Shown here: positions 2,554-54,265 of the stretch, piece after piece
Numbering within the stretch: the stretch's first letter is position 1
How the letters are laid out: each line of letters starts with the position of its first letter
Sequence record: MW341595
Reading direction: 5' to 3' (one strand)
From: Shigella phage Sfk20
DNA length: 64,000 nt
Program-made: the position numbers and the translations under genes
Notes under the pieces: generated by a model
What the model saw: the letters and a program-made list of their open reading frames with translations, nothing else
Told to the model about the DNA's origin: nothing
Databases searched by the model: none

Positions 2554-2742
2554 AAGTTTTCCATGGTAAAGGCAGTTTAGTTTTCTTTACTGTTAGTTCA
2601 ACATCAGGATTCTTTTCTCTTAATTTAAGGCATTCCTCCCAAGCTCTGATTTCACTAGTGAATACACAAAATTGCCCATTATTAGTACCAACTAAACCAC
2701 TATTTACAATAACAATAGACCAAGTTTCATGATGCCACGCCA

Positions 2743-2743
<1 letters not shown>
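2546..2743 (-). CDS. hypothetical protein (about 65 aa from internal ATG)
   Basis: ORF track 2546..2773; internal ATG at 2741-2743 overlaps pseT stop (TAATG), preferred start. Confidence 0.45.
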
Positions 2744-3968
<1,225 letters not shown>

Positions 3969-16540: not shown

Positions 16541-17458
16541 TCAAAATTCATTAATGCTATTAGTTAATTTAGAAAGACCCGCTTTTACAAAATATGAATA
16601 AATTTTGCCACGCGGTGGTAATTTATATGAATTATAATAATTCACAATGTTTGAAGCAATATTATCAGGAATATAATCAAAATCAATTAGAACTAAATTT
16701 TCTTTATAACGATTATATTCAGATTCTGTGAGAAGCACCTTAGCTTGATCACGGTCATTAGCAATAGCTTCGACAATAGATGTTTTCATTGAAGGAGTTC
16801 GTTCACCTTCAACTCTGGTAAACCAAAAGTCAGATCGTACTTTAACTGAAGCAACGTTATCCTTTTTGTCACCTTTAAGGATTTTAGTCATACAGTCAAT
16901 TTCAGCAGAACCGCTTTTAATTTTAACCCATTTCTTGTGCATCGGTGACCATTGCTTAACATTTGGGTATTTATGAAGTTGAGTAAAGTCACCATCCGAT
17001 GAAATGATTAAAATCTTATGTCCTTCTAAAGAGAACTTTTTAACAAGAACAGCAATATGGTCATCTGCTTCATACTTATCAATATCCATAACGATGTATG
17101 GCATATAAGCTTTCAGTTCATCTATAACTTTATGACTGGATTCAAAATAACCTTCCCAGTCCCAAGTAGATTCTTCTCGTGCTTTTCCACGGTTTTTCTT
17201 ATAATAATAAGCAAAATCACGACGCCAGTATCCAGATTTCGCGTTATCAATACACAATACAATTTTAGTGTATCCAAGAGTTTTTGCTTTTTTAACATTG
17301 AACTTAATTGAGTTCAATATCAAATGACGAACCATTGATAAATTAATTTTTTCTTTATCTGGGAAGTTTACCAGAGCAGTTGAAAGCGCAATCTGACTAA
17401 AGTCAATTAAGCAAATTCCTTCTTTGTAATCTTCATCCAGCATCATTTCTAAATCCAT
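16541..17458 (-). CDS. rnh: RNase H (5'-3' exonuclease/FEN)
   Basis: 305 aa from internal ATG (MDLEMMLDEDYKEG...); matches T4 RNase H. Confidence 0.95.
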   Translation of the reverse strand: MDLEMMLDEDYKEGICLIDFSQIALSTALVNFPDKEKINLSMVRHLILNSIKFNVKKAKTLGYTKIVLCIDNAKSGYWRRDFAYYYKKNRGKAREESTWDWEGYFESSHKVIDELKAYMPYIVMDIDKYEADDHIAVLVKKFSLEGHKILIISSDGDFTQLHKYPNVKQWSPMHKKWVKIKSGSAEIDCMTKILKGDKKDNVASVKVRSDFWFTRVEGERTPSMKTSIVEAIANDRDQAKVLLTESEYNRYKENLVLIDFDYIPDNIASNIVNYYNSYKLPPRGKIYSYFVKAGLSKLTNSINEF

Positions 17459-17486
17459 ATGAACCTCGTTCAATTAGTGAGATTTC

Positions 17487-17517
17487 TATTATATACTATC
17501 CAAATCTTAAAGTAAAC
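17487..17517 (-). promoter_or_regulatory. early promoter for rnh
   Basis: minus-sense GTTTAC-16nt-TATATAAT upstream of rnh. Confidence 0.5.
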
Positions 17518-17520
17518 AAG

Positions 17521-17528
17521 TATAAATA
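17521..17528 (+). promoter_or_regulatory. late promoter TATAAATA for gene 34
   Basis: exact TATAAATA about 35 nt upstream of gene 34 ATG, RBS TAGGAG. Confidence 0.7.
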
Positions 17529-17562
17529 CTTATTATTGAAAACACAATAGGAGCCCGGGAGA

Positions 17563-20500
17563 ATGGCCGAGATTAAAAGAAAGTTCAGAGCAGAAGATGG
17601 TCTGGACGCAGGTGGCGATAAAATAATCAACGTAGCTTTAGCTGATCGTGCCGTAGGAACTGACGGTGTTAACGTTGATTACCTAATTCAAGAAAACACA
17701 GTTCAACAATATGATCCAACTCGTGGATATTTAAAAGATTTTGTAATCATTTATGATAACCGCTTTTGGGCTGCTATAAATGATATTCCAAAACCGGCAG
17801 GAGCTTTTAATAGCGTGCGCTGGAGAGCATTACGTACTGATGCAAACTGGACAACTGTTTCGTCAGGACCTTATCAATTAAAGTCAGGTGAATCAATTTC
17901 AGTTAATACTGCAGCAGGAAATGATATCACATTTACTTTGCCAACTTCTCCAATTGATGGAGATACTATCGTTCTTCAAGATATTGGTGGAAAACCCGGA
18001 GTTAACCAAGTTTTAATTGTAGCTCCAGTGCAAAGTATTGTAAACTTTAGAGGCGAACAAGTACGATCAGTACTAATGACCCATCCAAAATCACAGATAG
18101 TTTTAATTTTTAGTAATCGTCTGTGGCAAATGTATGTGGCTGATTATAGTAGAGAAGCGGTAGTTGTGACGCCAGCAAGTCTCTACCAGGCGCAGTCAAA
18201 CGATTTTATCGTACGCAGATTTACTTCTGCTGCACCGATAAATATTAAACTTCCGAGATTTGCTAATCATGGCGATATTATTAATTTCGTTGATTTAGAT
18301 AAATTAAATCCTCTTTATCATACAATTGTTACTACATATGATGAAACTACATCAGTACAAGAAGATGGAACTCATTCCATTGAAGGACGTACATCGATTG
18401 ACGGTTTCTTGATGTATGATGATAATGAGAAATTATGGAGATTATTTGACGGGGATAGTAAAGCACGTTTACGCGTTATAACAACTAATTCTAATATTCG
18501 TCCAAACGAAGAAGTTATGGTATTTGGTGCGAATAATGGAACAACTCAAACAATTGAACTTCAGCTTCCGACCGATATTTCCATTGGCGATACTGTTAAA
18601 ATTTCCATGAATTACATGAGAAAAGGCCAAACAGTTAAAATCAAAGCTGCCGGTGAAGATAAAATTGCTTCTTCAGTTCAATTGCTGCAATTCCCAAAAC
18701 GTTCAGAATATCCACCTGAAGCTGAATGGGTGACTGTTCAAGAATTAGTTTTTAACGGTGAAACTAATTATGTTCCAGTTTTACAACTTGCTTATATCGA
18801 AGATTCTGACGGAAAATACTGGGTTGTACAGCAAAACGTTCCAACTGTAGAAAGAGTTGATTCTTTAAATGATTCTACTAGAGCAAGATTAGGCGTGATT
18901 GCTTTAGCTACACAAGCTCAAGCTAACGTCGATTTAGAAAATTCTCCACAAAAAGAATTAGCAATTACTCCAGAAACATTAGCTAACCGTACTGCTACAG
19001 AAACTCGTAGAGGTATCGCAAGAATAGCAACTACCGCCCAAGTGAATCAGGATACTACATTCTCTTTTGCTGACGATATTATCGTCACTCCTAAAAAGCT
19101 GAATGAAAGAACTGCTACAGAAACTCGTAGAGGTGTTGCTGAAATTGCTACGCAACAAGAAACTAATACAGGTACTGATGATACTACGATCATCACTCCT
19201 AAAAAGCTTCAAGCTCGTCAGGGTTCTGAATCATTATCTGGTATTGTAACCTTTGTATCTACCGCAGGAGCTACTCCAGCCTCTAGTCGTGAATTAAATG
19301 GTACAAATGTTTACAATAAAAACACTAATAATTTAGTTGTTTCGCCTAAAGCTCTGGATCAGTATAAAGCTACTCCAACACAACAAGGCGCAGTAATTTT
19401 AGCAGTTGAAAGTGAAGTAATTGCTGGACAAAGCCAAGAAGGATGGGCAAATGCGGTTGTAACTCCAGAAACGTTACATAAAAAGACATCAACTGATGGA
19501 AGAATTGGTTTAATTGAAATTGCTACGCAAAGTGAAGTTAATACAGGAACTGATTATACTCGCGCAGTCACTCCTAAAACTTTAAATGACCGTAAAGCAA
19601 CTGAAAGTTTAAGTGGTATAGCTGAAATTGCTACGCAAGTTGAATTCGACGCAGGCGTCGACGATACTCGTATCTCTACACCATTAAAAATTAAAACCAG
19701 ATTTAATAGTACTGATCGTACTTCTGTTGTTGCTCTATCTGGATTAGTTGAATCAGGAACTCTCTGGGACCATTATACCCTTAATATTCTTGAAGCAAAT
19801 GAGACACAGCGTGGTACACTTCGTGTGGCTACACAAGTTGAAGCTGCTGCAGGAACATTAGATAATGTTCTAATAACTCCTAAAAAGCTTTTAGGTACTA
19901 AATCTACTGAAGCGCAAGAAGGCGTTATTAAAGTTGCAACTCAATCTGAAACTGTAGCTGGAACGTCAGCAAATACTGCTGTATCTCCAAAAAATTTAAA
20001 ATGGATTGTGCAGAGCGAACCTACTTGGGCAGCAACTACTTTGGTAAGAGGTTTTGTTAAAACTTCATCTGGTTCAATTACATTCGTTGGTAATGATACA
20101 GTTGGTTCAACGCAGTCATTAGACTTGTACGAGAAAAATAGCTATGCAGTATCGCCATATGAATTAAACCGTGTATTAGCAAATTATTTGCCTTTAAAGG
20201 CAAAAGCTGCTGACACGAATTTATTGGATGGTCTAGATTCATCCCAGTTCATTCGTAGGGATATTGCGCAGACGGTTAATGGTTCACTAACCTTAACTCA
20301 ACAAACGAATCTGAGTGCCCCTCTTGTATCATCTAGTACTGCTACGTTTGGTGGATCAGTTTCGGCAAATAGTACACTAACTATTTCTAATACTGATGGA
20401 ACAGCAACTCGTCTGATTTTTGAGAAAGGACCTCAAACTGGAACGAACCCGGCTCAAACGATGACAGTCAGCGTGTGGGGGAATCAATTTAGTGGGGAAT

Positions 20501-27409: not shown

Positions 27410-27439
27410 TTTGAATAAATATCCTTAAAAGGAGGGTCT

Positions 27440-28096
27440 ATGGCAGCACCTAGAATATCATTTTCGCCCTCTGATATTCTGTTGGGTGTTCTAGATCGCT
27501 TGTTCAAAGATAACGCTACCGGGAAAGTTCTTGCTTCCCGGGTAGCTGTCGTAATTCTTTTGTTTATAATGGCGATTGTTTGGTATAGGGGAGATAGTTT
27601 CTTTGAGTACTATAAGCAATCAAAGTATGAAACATACAGTGAAATTATTGAAAAGGAAAGAAATGCACGCTTTGAATCTGTCGCCCTGGAACAACTCCAG
27701 ATAGTTCATATATCATCTGAGGCAGACTTTAGTGCGGTGTATTCTTTCCGCCCTAAAAACTTAAACTATTTTGTTGATATTATAGCATATGAAGGAAAAT
27801 TACCTTCAACGATAAGTGAAAAATCACTTGGAGGATATCCTGTTGATAAAACTATGGATGAATATGCAGTTCATTTAAATGGACGTCATTATTATTCCAA
27901 CTCAAAATTTGCTTTTTTACCGACTAAAAAGCCTACTCCCGAAATAAATTACATGTACAGTTGTCCATATTTCAATTTGGATAATATCTATGCTGGAACA
28001 ATAACCATGTACTGGTATAGAAATGATCATATAAGTAATGACCGCCTTGAATCAATATGTGCTCAGGCGGCCAGAATATTAGGAAGGGCTAAATAA
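27440..28096 (+). CDS. t: holin T
   Basis: 218 aa; matches T4 holin; single N-terminal TM helix. Confidence 0.95.
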   Translation: MAAPRISFSPSDILLGVLDRLFKDNATGKVLASRVAVVILLFIMAIVWYRGDSFFEYYKQSKYETYSEIIEKERNARFESVALEQLQIVHISSEADFSAVYSFRPKNLNYFVDIIAYEGKLPSTISEKSLGGYPVDKTMDEYAVHLNGRHYYSNSKFAFLPTKKPTPEINYMYSCPYFNLDNIYAGTITMYWYRNDHISNDRLESICAQAARILGRAK

Positions 28097-51658: not shown

Positions 51659-51904
51659 TTAACCACCAGTTACTTTCCACAAATCTTCGTTTGCAGTAAT
51701 CCATGCATCACGTTGATTTTCTTCGTATACAGTAGTATATGCTGCTTTTTCTGAAGGGAATGTCTGGTAATGAGCGCCAGAAATTTTGTGAACGTCAGAA
51801 TAAAGAGGGAAAGCTACAGAAATTTCCTTTCCTTCAATTTTCTTATTTCCATCTAATTTCTGCTCAAATGTTTTAATATTAACATAACCGCGAGTACTAG
51901 CCAT
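51659..51904 (-). CDS. soc: small outer capsid protein Soc
   Basis: 81 aa; matches T4 Soc. Confidence 0.9.
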   Translation of the reverse strand: MASTRGYVNIKTFEQKLDGNKKIEGKEISVAFPLYSDVHKISGAHYQTFPSEKAAYTTVYEENQRDAWITANEDLWKVTGG

Positions 51905-51976
51905 GTAATTCTCCTTTTATTTAAATTACATGACTATTTATAATAAATTCTCACAGCTTTTAAGCCGTCGTTTATA

Positions 51977-52495
51977 TTAATAACCTCGGTCTTGACGAGC
52001 GAAGTTTTCAGCATTTTTCAGATAATAAAGTTTAAAGATTTCTTCAGCCGTAAGACCGAGACCTTGGAACATGTTCAGAACGAAATGAAGAATATCAATC
52101 ATTTCGAATTTAATTTCCAACTGGTCTTGTGGAGATAAGTCAGTAATCAGAGTTTCACGACGTTCACCGTGTTGCGACTTCCAAGGCTTCCATACAGCAG
52201 ATGCATCTTTTTCGCCATTGCTCATACCACCAAGAGAAGTCAGAAGTTCGCGGAATTCATCATCAATATAATCTTTCTGATTACGCAGCCAATCAACAAC
52301 TTCACCTGCAGTAGCCAAATCATCAGGATGACGGTTATATTCAGGTTTATCTTTAGCTAAACGAACCTGCAGAGATTTCTGCATATCAAGCATAACTTGC
52401 AACGGATCTTTTTCATCACCGAGAATATCCCAGTATTCATTTTGAGCTTTATCAGCGCCTTCAATCAGTTGACTACATTCATTAAAGTAAGCCAT
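51977..52495 (-). CDS. 56: dCTP pyrophosphatase gp56
   Basis: about 172 aa from internal ATG (MAYFNECSQLIEGADKAQNEYWD...); matches T4 gp56. Confidence 0.9.
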   Translation of the reverse strand: MAYFNECSQLIEGADKAQNEYWDILGDEKDPLQVMLDMQKSLQVRLAKDKPEYNRHPDDLATAGEVVDWLRNQKDYIDDEFRELLTSLGGMSNGEKDASAVWKPWKSQHGERRETLITDLSPQDQLEIKFEMIDILHFVLNMFQGLGLTAEEIFKLYYLKNAENFARQDRGY

Positions 52496-52529
52496 TATTT
52501 TTCCTTTCAATTCATGGGTTAGTAGATTA

Positions 52530-52555
52530 ATTATACAATAAATATATAAAGCAAT
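52530..52555 (-). promoter_or_regulatory. MotA-dependent middle promoter for gene 56
   Basis: minus-sense ATTGCTTTA (MotA box) -11nt- TATAAT. Confidence 0.55.
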
Positions 52556-52566
52556 AAGGAGGACAT

Positions 52567-52767
52567 ATGGTACAAAAATTAATGGCACTTGTTAATGCCA
52601 TAAAAGGTAATAAAAAACGTATAGCTTTTACTATTTCTGCTATGGTAGGAATTTTACTCTGGAATTTTGTTTTATCACCAATTGCTATTGCTCATGGTGT
52701 TAATATTCCAGTAATTACTCTTGATACATTCGTAGATTTAGCATTTGCTTTGGTTGGGTTAATTTAA
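52567..52767 (+). CDS. plus-strand small membrane protein (66 aa)
   Basis: ORF track; AAGGAGG RBS 6 nt before ATG; hydrophobic segments; lies antisense to the 61-56 intergenic region. Confidence 0.4.
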   Translation: MVQKLMALVNAIKGNKKRIAFTISAMVGILLWNFVLSPIAIAHGVNIPVITLDTFVDLAFALVGLI

Positions 52768-53792
52768 ATCTTAGCATATTTAGATAGCCGCATTTTAGCC
52801 ATCAACCCTTGGGCAATATTATTTTTCATATATTCCATAATTTGTTCAGGGGTTGCACCTTCCTTTCTAATCATATCATTAACATCTTTTGATTTCCAGG
52901 GAGATTTATCCCAAAACATAACCCTTTCTCCTGCATCAACTAATTTAGTCATTCGTTTAATAGTGTCAGGGTGACGAGGTTCATTATCTAAAACCCACAC
53001 ACGTCTATCTTTAAATGGAACAATTTCTAGGTCTAATTGACCACCCGTAATAGCTATACCATTTTCAATAAAAAGTGAATCTATAGGTCCTTCTAGAACA
53101 TATACATCACCATCTTTGACTCGTTCAACTCCATAGATTTTTGTTGCCTCAGGATAAGCTTTGATGGTGATATATTTTTGAGGAGCATCTTTCTTTAATG
53201 CACGTCCTTGAAAAGACTCGGCTTTTCCGTTAGCGTTATAAATTGGAATAACAAGACGAGGCTCGGGCATTTCCTTTTTATATGTTCCTGGCGCTATACT
53301 ATTAACTAATTTAGGCCATTCGGTTGTAAACCAAAGATATTTCCATTTATTCTTTGGAATACAACGAGCTTTTACATATTTTATAATTGGATGGTCTTCC
53401 GCCAGTTTATCTAATCTAATGCATGACGGAAGAGATTTAATTATTTTCTTCTCAGGTTGTTTAGGAAGTTCTTTAGGTTTTTCTACTGGACGACTTTTAC
53501 CTTTTTCTTTTCTTATTTCAAAGATATACTCACGATATAAATCAGGTTCAAACTCCTTTAAATATATTCCAATTGGTGCATGATAGTTACAGTTATAACA
53601 ATGAATATTTCCTTCATTATTATCGCCATAATACCATCCACGGGCTTTATTTTGATCGGTTTTTGAATCTCCACAAACAGGGCATCTAAACCGTAATTTA
53701 AAAGTTGAACTATTATTTACTTGTGCGAATTTAGGTAAATGAGCCAATGCACGGTATGCAAACTCATTATCAATCCAAGGTATTGATGACAT
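52764..53792 (-). CDS. 61: DNA primase gp61
   Basis: 342 aa; zinc ribbon CPVCGD...CYNC and TOPRIM; matches T4 gp61. Confidence 0.95.
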   Translation of the reverse strand: MSSIPWIDNEFAYRALAHLPKFAQVNNSSTFKLRFRCPVCGDSKTDQNKARGWYYGDNNEGNIHCYNCNYHAPIGIYLKEFEPDLYREYIFEIRKEKGKSRPVEKPKELPKQPEKKIIKSLPSCIRLDKLAEDHPIIKYVKARCIPKNKWKYLWFTTEWPKLVNSIAPGTYKKEMPEPRLVIPIYNANGKAESFQGRALKKDAPQKYITIKAYPEATKIYGVERVKDGDVYVLEGPIDSLFIENGIAITGGQLDLEIVPFKDRRVWVLDNEPRHPDTIKRMTKLVDAGERVMFWDKSPWKSKDVNDMIRKEGATPEQIMEYMKNNIAQGLMAKMRLSKYAKI

Positions 53793-53794
53793 TT

Positions 53795-53959
53795 TTACTC
53801 TTCTTTTTCTTTAGATTCCTCTTTTTTCTTTTTAGGAATCTGTTCAGGACCTTTATTTACTACAGCGCCTGACGTTGTTCCAGTAGAGATATTTTCAGGA
53901 TTACCACCTGAATCTCCAGCTACCATATCTTCTTTGATAAATTCTTTAAACGTTTTCAT
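53795..53959 (-). CDS. small Gly/Lys-rich protein (54 aa)
   Basis: manual translation MKTFKEFIKEDMVAGDSGGNPENIS...KKKKEESKEKEE; stop adjacent to gene 61 start. Confidence 0.35.
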   Translation of the reverse strand: MKTFKEFIKEDMVAGDSGGNPENISTGTTSGAVVNKGPEQIPKKKKEESKEKEE

Positions 53960-53971
53960 ATTAGCCTCTAA

Positions 53972-54265
53972 TTATTCACCTACCACTTCAGCGATGATAT
54001 TTTTATTATTAAAGTTTTTATCGCAATACAGAACATAATTATACTGCATTACACCACCAGACTTAAGCTGTTTTTGCACTTCGGCTTTCATTTCAGGGCG
54101 ATCACGCTCAACGATATTCATAATATCTGCTTCAATTTGAGTTTCAACCTCAGTCTGATCTGCAGTCATAGACCATTCACACAAATCTTTGTCATAACCC
54201 GCCATAGCAGGCTGAGCAGCACAAGAAGATAAAGCAAAAATTGTAGCAAAGATAAATTTTTTCAT
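53972..54265 (-). CDS. sp: periplasmic protein, Spackle-like (signal peptide)
   Basis: 97 aa; cleavable signal peptide MKKFIFATIFALSSCAAQPAMA; position between 61 and 41. Confidence 0.6.
   Translation of the reverse strand: MKKFIFATIFALSSCAAQPAMAGYDKDLCEWSMTADQTEVETQIEADIMNIVERDRPEMKAEVQKQLKSGGVMQYNYVLYCDKNFNNKNIIAEVVGE

Follow-up and report, generated by a model that had tools for sequence, protein, structure and literature searches.

A compact gene 56-61 interval without dam in Shigella phage Sfk20 and the conserved small gene opposite its middle promoter

Analysis of 64,000 nucleotides of Shigella phage Sfk20 DNA (record MW341595; the whole stretch is referred to here as the window) suggests that the short interval between genes 56 and 61 is likely a Tequatrovirus locus in an empty state, the conserved core of which would be a MotA promoter together with a divergent, late-expressed gene for a small membrane protein. 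The cassette taken to be absent from the site comprises a nuclease-fold gene and dam in phages of the T2 type, and dam with a remnant of the nuclease gene in T4. In this reading, a MotA-dependent middle promoter on the minus strand would drive gene 56, while the divergent small gene on the plus strand would be transcribed late by gp55-RNA polymerase from the element AATAAATA (52537-52544), with a start near 52550. Translation from a strong AAGGAGG site would then yield a bitopic inner-membrane protein of 66 amino acids.

Genes 56 and 61 and the dam cassette

Over its whole length the window is 93-98% identical to positions 130,944-168,805 plus 1-28,825 of Escherichia phage EC121, the closest complete genome, and from this alignment it is assigned to Tequatrovirus (T4-type), as a segment leading from the tail-fibre/lysis region through rII to the replication genes. 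EC121 is also the best of the 728 phage records that match positions 51900-53100 (98.9% identity over 1201 bases). Gene 56 (dCTPase/dUTPase, present as a non-T4 allele) occupies 51977-52495 on the minus strand, its open reading frame (ORF) matching phrog_173 (E=1.5e-46), and gene 61 (DNA primase) lies on the same strand at 52764-53792, its ORF matching phrog_47 (E=5e-107). The distance between the two genes, given as about 270 bp in the first-pass annotation of the window, measures 268 bp (52496-52763). The same arrangement has already been annotated in RB51, EC121 and other phages.

Two further features of the surroundings vary among these phages. Gene 56 occurs as two alleles, the type found in the window and RB51 being 71-74% identical in amino acid sequence to the T4 type (loci L007 and L012), despite the approximately 98% identity of gp61 of the window to both RB51 and T4 gp61; gp56 of the window is 100% identical to that of RB51. 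In T4, the homing endonuclease gene segF adjoins the gene 56 allele. The window also has no gene 61.2, so that 61.1 (53795-53959) and sp (53972-54265) stand 12 nt apart (53960-53971); EC121, T4 and RB51 carry gene 61.2 of about 0.6 kb between 61.1 and sp, and positions 17298-17912 of EC121 have no counterpart in the window.

For T4, the reference record (NC_000866) has both dam (16846-17625) and oriA (16763) in the 56-61 interval, in agreement with what the first-pass annotation said about this neighbourhood. That annotation had also seen no DPPY-type methyltransferase ORF in the window. A tblastn search of the window with T4 Dam bears this out, as the best match has E=0.77 and no Dam-like gene is present, and none of the four matches to the motif [DNS]PP[YFW] in the window falls in a methyltransferase-like match. 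The genome-wide search for dam that had been called for was carried out on the complete EC121 genome, where T4 Dam gives a best E of 1.5 with no Dam-like sequence anywhere; among the EC121 ORFs of at least 150 aa, the sole [DNS]PP[YFW] is a DPPF in the ORF of the gp13 neck protein. The combination of T4 Dam similarity and DPPY motif that marks a D12-class N6-adenine methyltransferase is thus found neither in the window nor in EC121, and the possibility that dam has been relocated elsewhere in the genome was rejected on the EC121 search. The first-pass annotation had allowed for a contrary situation in which dam lies elsewhere and T4 lacks it at this site; the opposite is seen, with T4 carrying dam at the site and EC121 having none elsewhere.

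The dam-less state is widespread. T4-type Dam, at 90% identity or more, turns up in about 182 records, compared with about 499 Tequatrovirus records that hold the 66-codon ORF at an identity of at least 90%; from these record counts, dam would be missing in about 317 of the 499, or roughly two thirds. At least 80% of a 1.2-kb query from this region is covered in one place in 428 records, and insertions of 350-650 bp are present in some of those listed. Likewise, dam is missing at the 56-61 site in the examined loci of Mosigvirus, Gaprivervirus and Jiaodavirus type and in both metagenomic lineages. Because these other genera and lineages share the empty layout, the empty state is the more parsimonious ancestral one, and comparison of the sequences suggests that a 56-61 site without dam is ordinary and probably ancestral. 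The reading implied earlier, that the interval is out of the ordinary and that a membrane ORF occupies the place of dam, does not hold, since T4 and T2 have both and the dam-less state is in the majority. For the same reason the ORF was rejected as a substitute for dam: T4 and T2 carry the same ORF beside gene 61 in addition to dam. The compact arrangement without dam is common and already annotated, and its observation here is ordinary and already known.

Where dam is present it may have a partner. In locus L008, a 186-aa ORF lies directly upstream of dam, and its stop overlaps the dam start codon. This ORF occurs in 164 phage records, including T2, and contains an FDIVI...EIK motif of the PD-(D/E)XK type; PADLOC matches it to REase_II (E=9e-5), and Pfam to DpnII below threshold only. 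T4 keeps just the last ~27 codons of the nuclease-fold gene upstream of dam, which corresponds to a deletion of ~540 bp relative to the T2-type, and this remnant lies at 2411-2473 of the KJ477684 locus (L012) and at ~17640-17700 of NC_000866. P(E)17.40, the annotated early promoter of dam, falls within the same stretch of ~115 bp as the T4 remnant. No remnant of either dam or the nuclease gene is found in the window or in EC121. The nuclease-fold ORF abutting dam and the T4 remnant lead us to read the variable unit at the 56-61 site as a restriction-modification-like gene pair which, judged from these sequences, T2-type phages keep intact, T4 has in decayed form and the window lacks. The T4 56-dam-61 region (NC_000866, 16270-18963) has the same flanking genes as the window, the same position of the MotA promoter and the same plus-strand ORF abutting gene 61. 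It differs in that the MotA box and the region upstream of the ORF are set ~0.9 kb farther apart by a stretch that holds dam, P(E)17.40 and the nuclease remnant, and also in its other gene 56 allele and in the presence of segF.

The 66-codon gene and its relatives

The ORF in the interval spans 52567-52767 on the plus strand and encodes a strongly hydrophobic product (GRAVY +1.25) of 66 aa, residues 2-66 of which match phrog_2024 (E=5.4e-31), the family of RB32ORF030w and RB69ORF029w. A Shine-Dalgarno (SD) sequence, AAGGAGG, is read at 52556-52562, 4 nt before the ATG. This spacing is at the short end of the range and counts against our model; the sequence itself is kept as AAGGAGG, AAGGAG or AGGAGG in all lineages compared. 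The TAA stop (52765-52767) overlaps the stop of gene 61 (52764-52766, minus strand) in a convergent overlap of 4 nt (52764-52767). The first-pass description of a hydrophobic 66-aa ORF on the opposite strand, with an AAGGAGG ribosome binding site and a convergent overlap with the gene 61 stop, is therefore accurate. No minus-strand ORF of at least 30 aa lies inside the non-overlapping part of the ORF. A dual start at Met1 and Met6 was considered and rejected, as Met6 is not kept in other genera.

Membership of the family is indicated by similarity over the full length and by position, on the opposite strand between genes 56 and 61 and abutting the 3' end of the primase gene. The protein is 100% identical to the EC121 copy and 97% identical to that of RB51, and RB32ORF030w and RB69ORF029w share family, position, strand and length with it, with no material difference. 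RB32ORF030w is annotated as 'similar to RB69ORF029w', and in other records, in hundreds of genomes, the product is called a hypothetical protein. A tblastn search with the ORF finds 692 phage records, about 499 of them at 90% identity or more (Tequatrovirus) and about 190 at ~50% (Mosigvirus, Gaprivervirus); among the matches listed, the ORF is at the primase 3' end wherever the record is annotated.

The T4 and T2 reference records lack this annotation. The 309 bp between dam and gene 61 in NC_000866 carry none, yet the same ORF, the same AAGGAGG and the same stop overlap are there, with the ORF at ~17740-17940 on the plus strand (3241-3441 of L002) and 95.5% identical in amino acid sequence to that of the window. 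In T2 (NC_054931), the same ORF is found at 16642-16839 (plus strand), again without RefSeq annotation. RB69ORF029w was listed in 2006 among the numbered ORFs of RB69's own, though T4 has an unannotated copy.

Beyond Tequatrovirus, the order of gene 56, the oppositely oriented ORF and gene 61 is kept in the examined loci of Mosigvirus, Gaprivervirus and Klebsiella phages of Jiaodavirus type, and in two metagenomic lineages (68% and 52% identity), so that, examined one locus at a time, at least four genera agree in position and strand. The Jiaodavirus-type Klebsiella phage has a positional orthologue of 63 aa with the same WN[FY]xxxP[LI]AxxHGxxxP core, and a tblastn search with this query gives weaker matches, at the level of the matches themselves, in genomes of Moonvirus, Gelderlandvirus, Karamvirus and Dhakavirus. 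At the 56-61 site, co-oriented ORFs are present instead in one locus each of Karamvirus and Winklervirus. In the Gaprivervirus phage VR25 (L010), the ORF is present as two tandem copies (2495-2692 and 2701-2901, plus strand), the second strongly diverged while keeping LWN...P(I)A...G...LP. In TH40 (L011), the second tandem copy is disrupted, and only a shorter, unrelated-looking ORF is present at its position.

Pairwise dN/dS values range from 0.05 to 0.25 within Tequatrovirus, and the window differs from RB51 by seven synonymous and two non-synonymous substitutions. Across genera, the frame, the length (63-66 codons) and a strong SD sequence are kept at an amino acid identity of only ~30-50%. 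On this comparative evidence, the ORF is a real, conserved protein-coding gene under purifying selection. The family appears to be a small one. The ORF has no match in Pfam, NCBIfam or PADLOC (none in Pfam or NCBIfam at E<=10), and an exhaustive profile HMM search of 1.84 billion cluster representatives returned six clusters, all of the same small family. Foldseek against viral models gave the family itself plus weak matches to small transmembrane (TM) proteins, with no characterised protein among them, and no paralogue is present in the EC121 genome. Literature searches with the ORF names and on T4 ribosome profiling or unannotated ORFs and T4 transcription-start mapping returned nothing on the ORF.

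Promoter motifs in the interval

On the minus strand, a MotA-type middle promoter for gene 56 is located at 52530-52553, with TGCTTTA at 52553-52547, a spacer of 11 nt and a -10 TATAAT at 52535-52530. Taken with its flank, the stretch 52555-52530 reads ATTGCTTTA, 11 nt, TATAAT, which agrees with a MotA box of the form (a/t)(a/t)(a/t)TGCTT(t/c)A followed, some 12 bp downstream, by a sigma-70 -10 TAnnnT. Chance alone would give 3.6 matches to the pattern TGCTTTA-N11-TATAAT in the window, where 14 are present. Similar MotA boxes are present at the same place in Mosigvirus and Gaprivervirus, and the window promoter is the positional equivalent of T4 P(M)16.53, which was annotated by Macdonald and Mosig; the earlier assignment of a MotA-box middle promoter for gene 56 to this interval can thus be retained. 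The T4 record places oriA at the gene 56 5' end and names the gene 56 transcript as primer, and P(M)16.53 is the promoter thought to prime oriA in T4 (PMC3016281). For the window, an oriA-type arrangement, in which transcription from a MotA promoter runs into gene 56 at its 5' end, is suggested by positional homology only. The plus-strand gene beside this promoter would create local divergence; any bearing of this on origin function is pure speculation.

A late-promoter-like element, AATAAATA, is present on the plus strand at 52537-52544, 22 nt upstream of the ORF ATG. It matches the T4 late promoter TATAAATA in seven of eight positions and stands, as an element of the TATAAATA type would, about 6 nt upstream of the proposed start and near the gene. 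Its heptamer, ATAAATA, matches the T4 late-promoter core and is rare, with 13 occurrences in the 64 kb of the window when both strands are counted. The heptamer lies 13-22 nt before the ORF start codon in eight of nine lineages, despite unrelated flanking sequence; in one lineage (P0028, L013) the exact ATAAATA was not found. It has no fixed place with respect to the MotA box: the window, RB51 and locus L004 have it within the spacer, in Gaprivervirus it overlaps the upstream flank of the box, in Mosigvirus it lies past the box, and in T4 it is ~900 bp away. With such varying distances to the opposing promoter, ATAAATA tracks the ORF and not the MotA promoter.

In EC121, as mapped on the annotations, the same combination of AATAAATA, SD and ATG is found in front of t, gene 15 and inh. 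The holin gene t of the window (218 aa; 27440, plus strand, upstream region 27414-27440) has AATAAATAT in place of the canonical TATAAATA, followed by AAGGAGG, so that within the window t and the 66-codon gene share the same AATAAATAT promoter variant and the same ribosome binding site. From the conservation of ATAAATA, its rarity and the presence of the variant at known late genes we infer a gp55-dependent late promoter, and late transcription is most likely for the 66-codon gene as far as the motif can tell. The resemblance extends to the layout of T4 late genes such as t, gene 15 and inh, which have AATAAATA or TATAAATA 13-35 nt upstream of SD and ATG and are, as most late genes, on the plus strand. 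Unlike them, the 66-codon gene is a solitary one within an early/middle region and diverges from a middle promoter. According to Nolan et al. (PMC1524935), T4-like late promoters show little conservation of the T at -13, where A is common. In T4 and Gaprivervirus this first base of the octamer is G and C, respectively, and not T or A, which may weaken the promoter. No late promoter was predicted upstream of RB69ORF029w by Nolan et al. in 2006 (PMC1524935).

With the late element placed in the spacer of the MotA promoter on the other strand, the two promoters would share the same ~25 bp and would be used one after the other, in middle and then in late transcription. As a corollary of the doubtful late-envelope role considered below, and weaker than it, a late promoter nested in the promoter thought to prime oriA could add to the reported late activity of oriA. 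Downstream of the ORF, no plus-strand intrinsic terminator is found within ~3.5 kb, and a late transcript would therefore run antisense into gene 61. On the minus strand, a terminator-like hairpin followed by a T-run is located at 52572-52601 (8-bp stem, 52601-52582), as a consensus match that is also present in the minimum free energy (MFE) fold. It lies inside codons 6-12 of the ORF and is kept in Tequatrovirus only, not in other genera. Judged from its sequence, it could terminate transcription of gene 61 ahead of the gene 56 promoter. As a cause of the conservation of the ORF the hairpin was rejected, because it is confined to Tequatrovirus.

Predicted product, other readings and meaning

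AlphaFold2 (shallow alignment, pLDDT 76) models the product as helices at residues 2-12, 16-42 and 52-63, with an HG...P loop between the last two, and a single TM segment (21-41) has been predicted for RB69ORF029w (Nolan et al., PMC1524935 supplement). All five basic residues are N-terminal to the long helix, both Asp residues are C-terminal to it, and no basic residue occurs after position 18. This charge distribution and the positive-inside rule predict an N-in/C-out orientation, and the model is that of a single-pass (bitopic) inner-membrane protein. The Lys/Arg-rich N-terminus would be cytoplasmic, one TM helix at about residues 19-42 would carry the WN[FY]...P...HG core, and the acidic-hydrophobic C-terminal tail of 24 residues would face the periplasm. 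An accessory role in the envelope or in the lysis phase is a guess of low confidence. A more specific idea, doubtful in our own estimation, is that the protein is an overlooked late-envelope component of T-even phages, which might act in lysis timing, lysis inhibition or late superinfection control, with T, RI or a host membrane protein as the target of its WN[FY]-P-HG TM core.

It might be asked whether this product is simply a lysis protein of the holin or pinholin type. In its small size, its hydrophobicity and its predicted late expression it resembles small phage holins (class II/pinholin); it has a TM domain, and its gene shares the AATAAATAT and AAGGAGG arrangement with holin gene t; the labels 'Holin' for phage OE5505 (UniRef/BFVD) and 'putative holin' for Klebsiella phage KP1079 point the same way. 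However, these labels come from automatic annotation without experimental support, and the T holin is already encoded in the window (27440). The product has just one segment long enough to span the membrane and not two, its C-terminus, ...DTFVDLAFALVGLI (...AFALVGLI), is hydrophobic whereas a holin tail is charged and hydrophilic, and no holin family of Pfam or NCBIfam matches it. Given the single spanning segment, the missing charged tail and the missing family match, the ORF is not classed as a holin, and we hold such an identity to be quite improbable. Still further from our expectation, and in our view highly improbable, is an untranslated ORF conserved for cis elements, be it a gene 61 terminator, a 3' UTR or a template for late RNA antisense to the primase mRNA. 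The minus-strand hairpin inside the ORF and the lack of a plus-strand terminator, by which a transcript would enter gene 61 in antisense, fit this explanation. The predominance of synonymous substitutions (seven to two between the window and RB51) does not, nor do the frame, length and strong SD sequence that persist across genera at ~30-50% identity; the hairpin is not kept outside Tequatrovirus, and the diverged tandem duplicate of VR25 keeps the protein motif.

A separate question is whether the compact interval reflects a recent deletion of dam in this lineage and not a cassette that was never acquired. T-even phages recombine freely, the two states coexist at more than 95% identity of the flanks, and in T4, where only the last ~27 nuclease codons are left, the cassette is seen decaying. 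Against a deletion stand the lack of any dam or nuclease remnant in the window and EC121 and the empty layout of the Mosigvirus, Gaprivervirus and Jiaodavirus-type loci and both metagenomic lineages, which makes the empty state the more parsimonious ancestor. The late element and the MotA promoter are, moreover, tightly interleaved with the same sequence in RB51, L004 and the window, a sign that the arrangement is an established one. We consider a recent deletion unlikely, though a reading of some weight, and prefer an empty-state locus with its MotA promoter and divergent small gene as the conserved core.

For the window itself the matter is a small one, a common dam-less Tequatrovirus state with an ORF that earlier records already call a hypothetical protein. 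What is new is limited to three points: an annotation gap in the T4 and T2 records, a late promoter inferred to lie within the MotA promoter, and a nuclease gene as the partner of dam in related phages. The first of these has a practical side: the T4 and T2 RefSeq records miss a conserved gene, and proteomics and transcriptomics built on those annotations cannot detect it. The last concerns the T-even phages more generally, in which dam would be the methylase half of a variably present pair with a partner of the type II restriction-endonuclease fold, and this alters the view of the 'orphan' Dam of T2 and T4.
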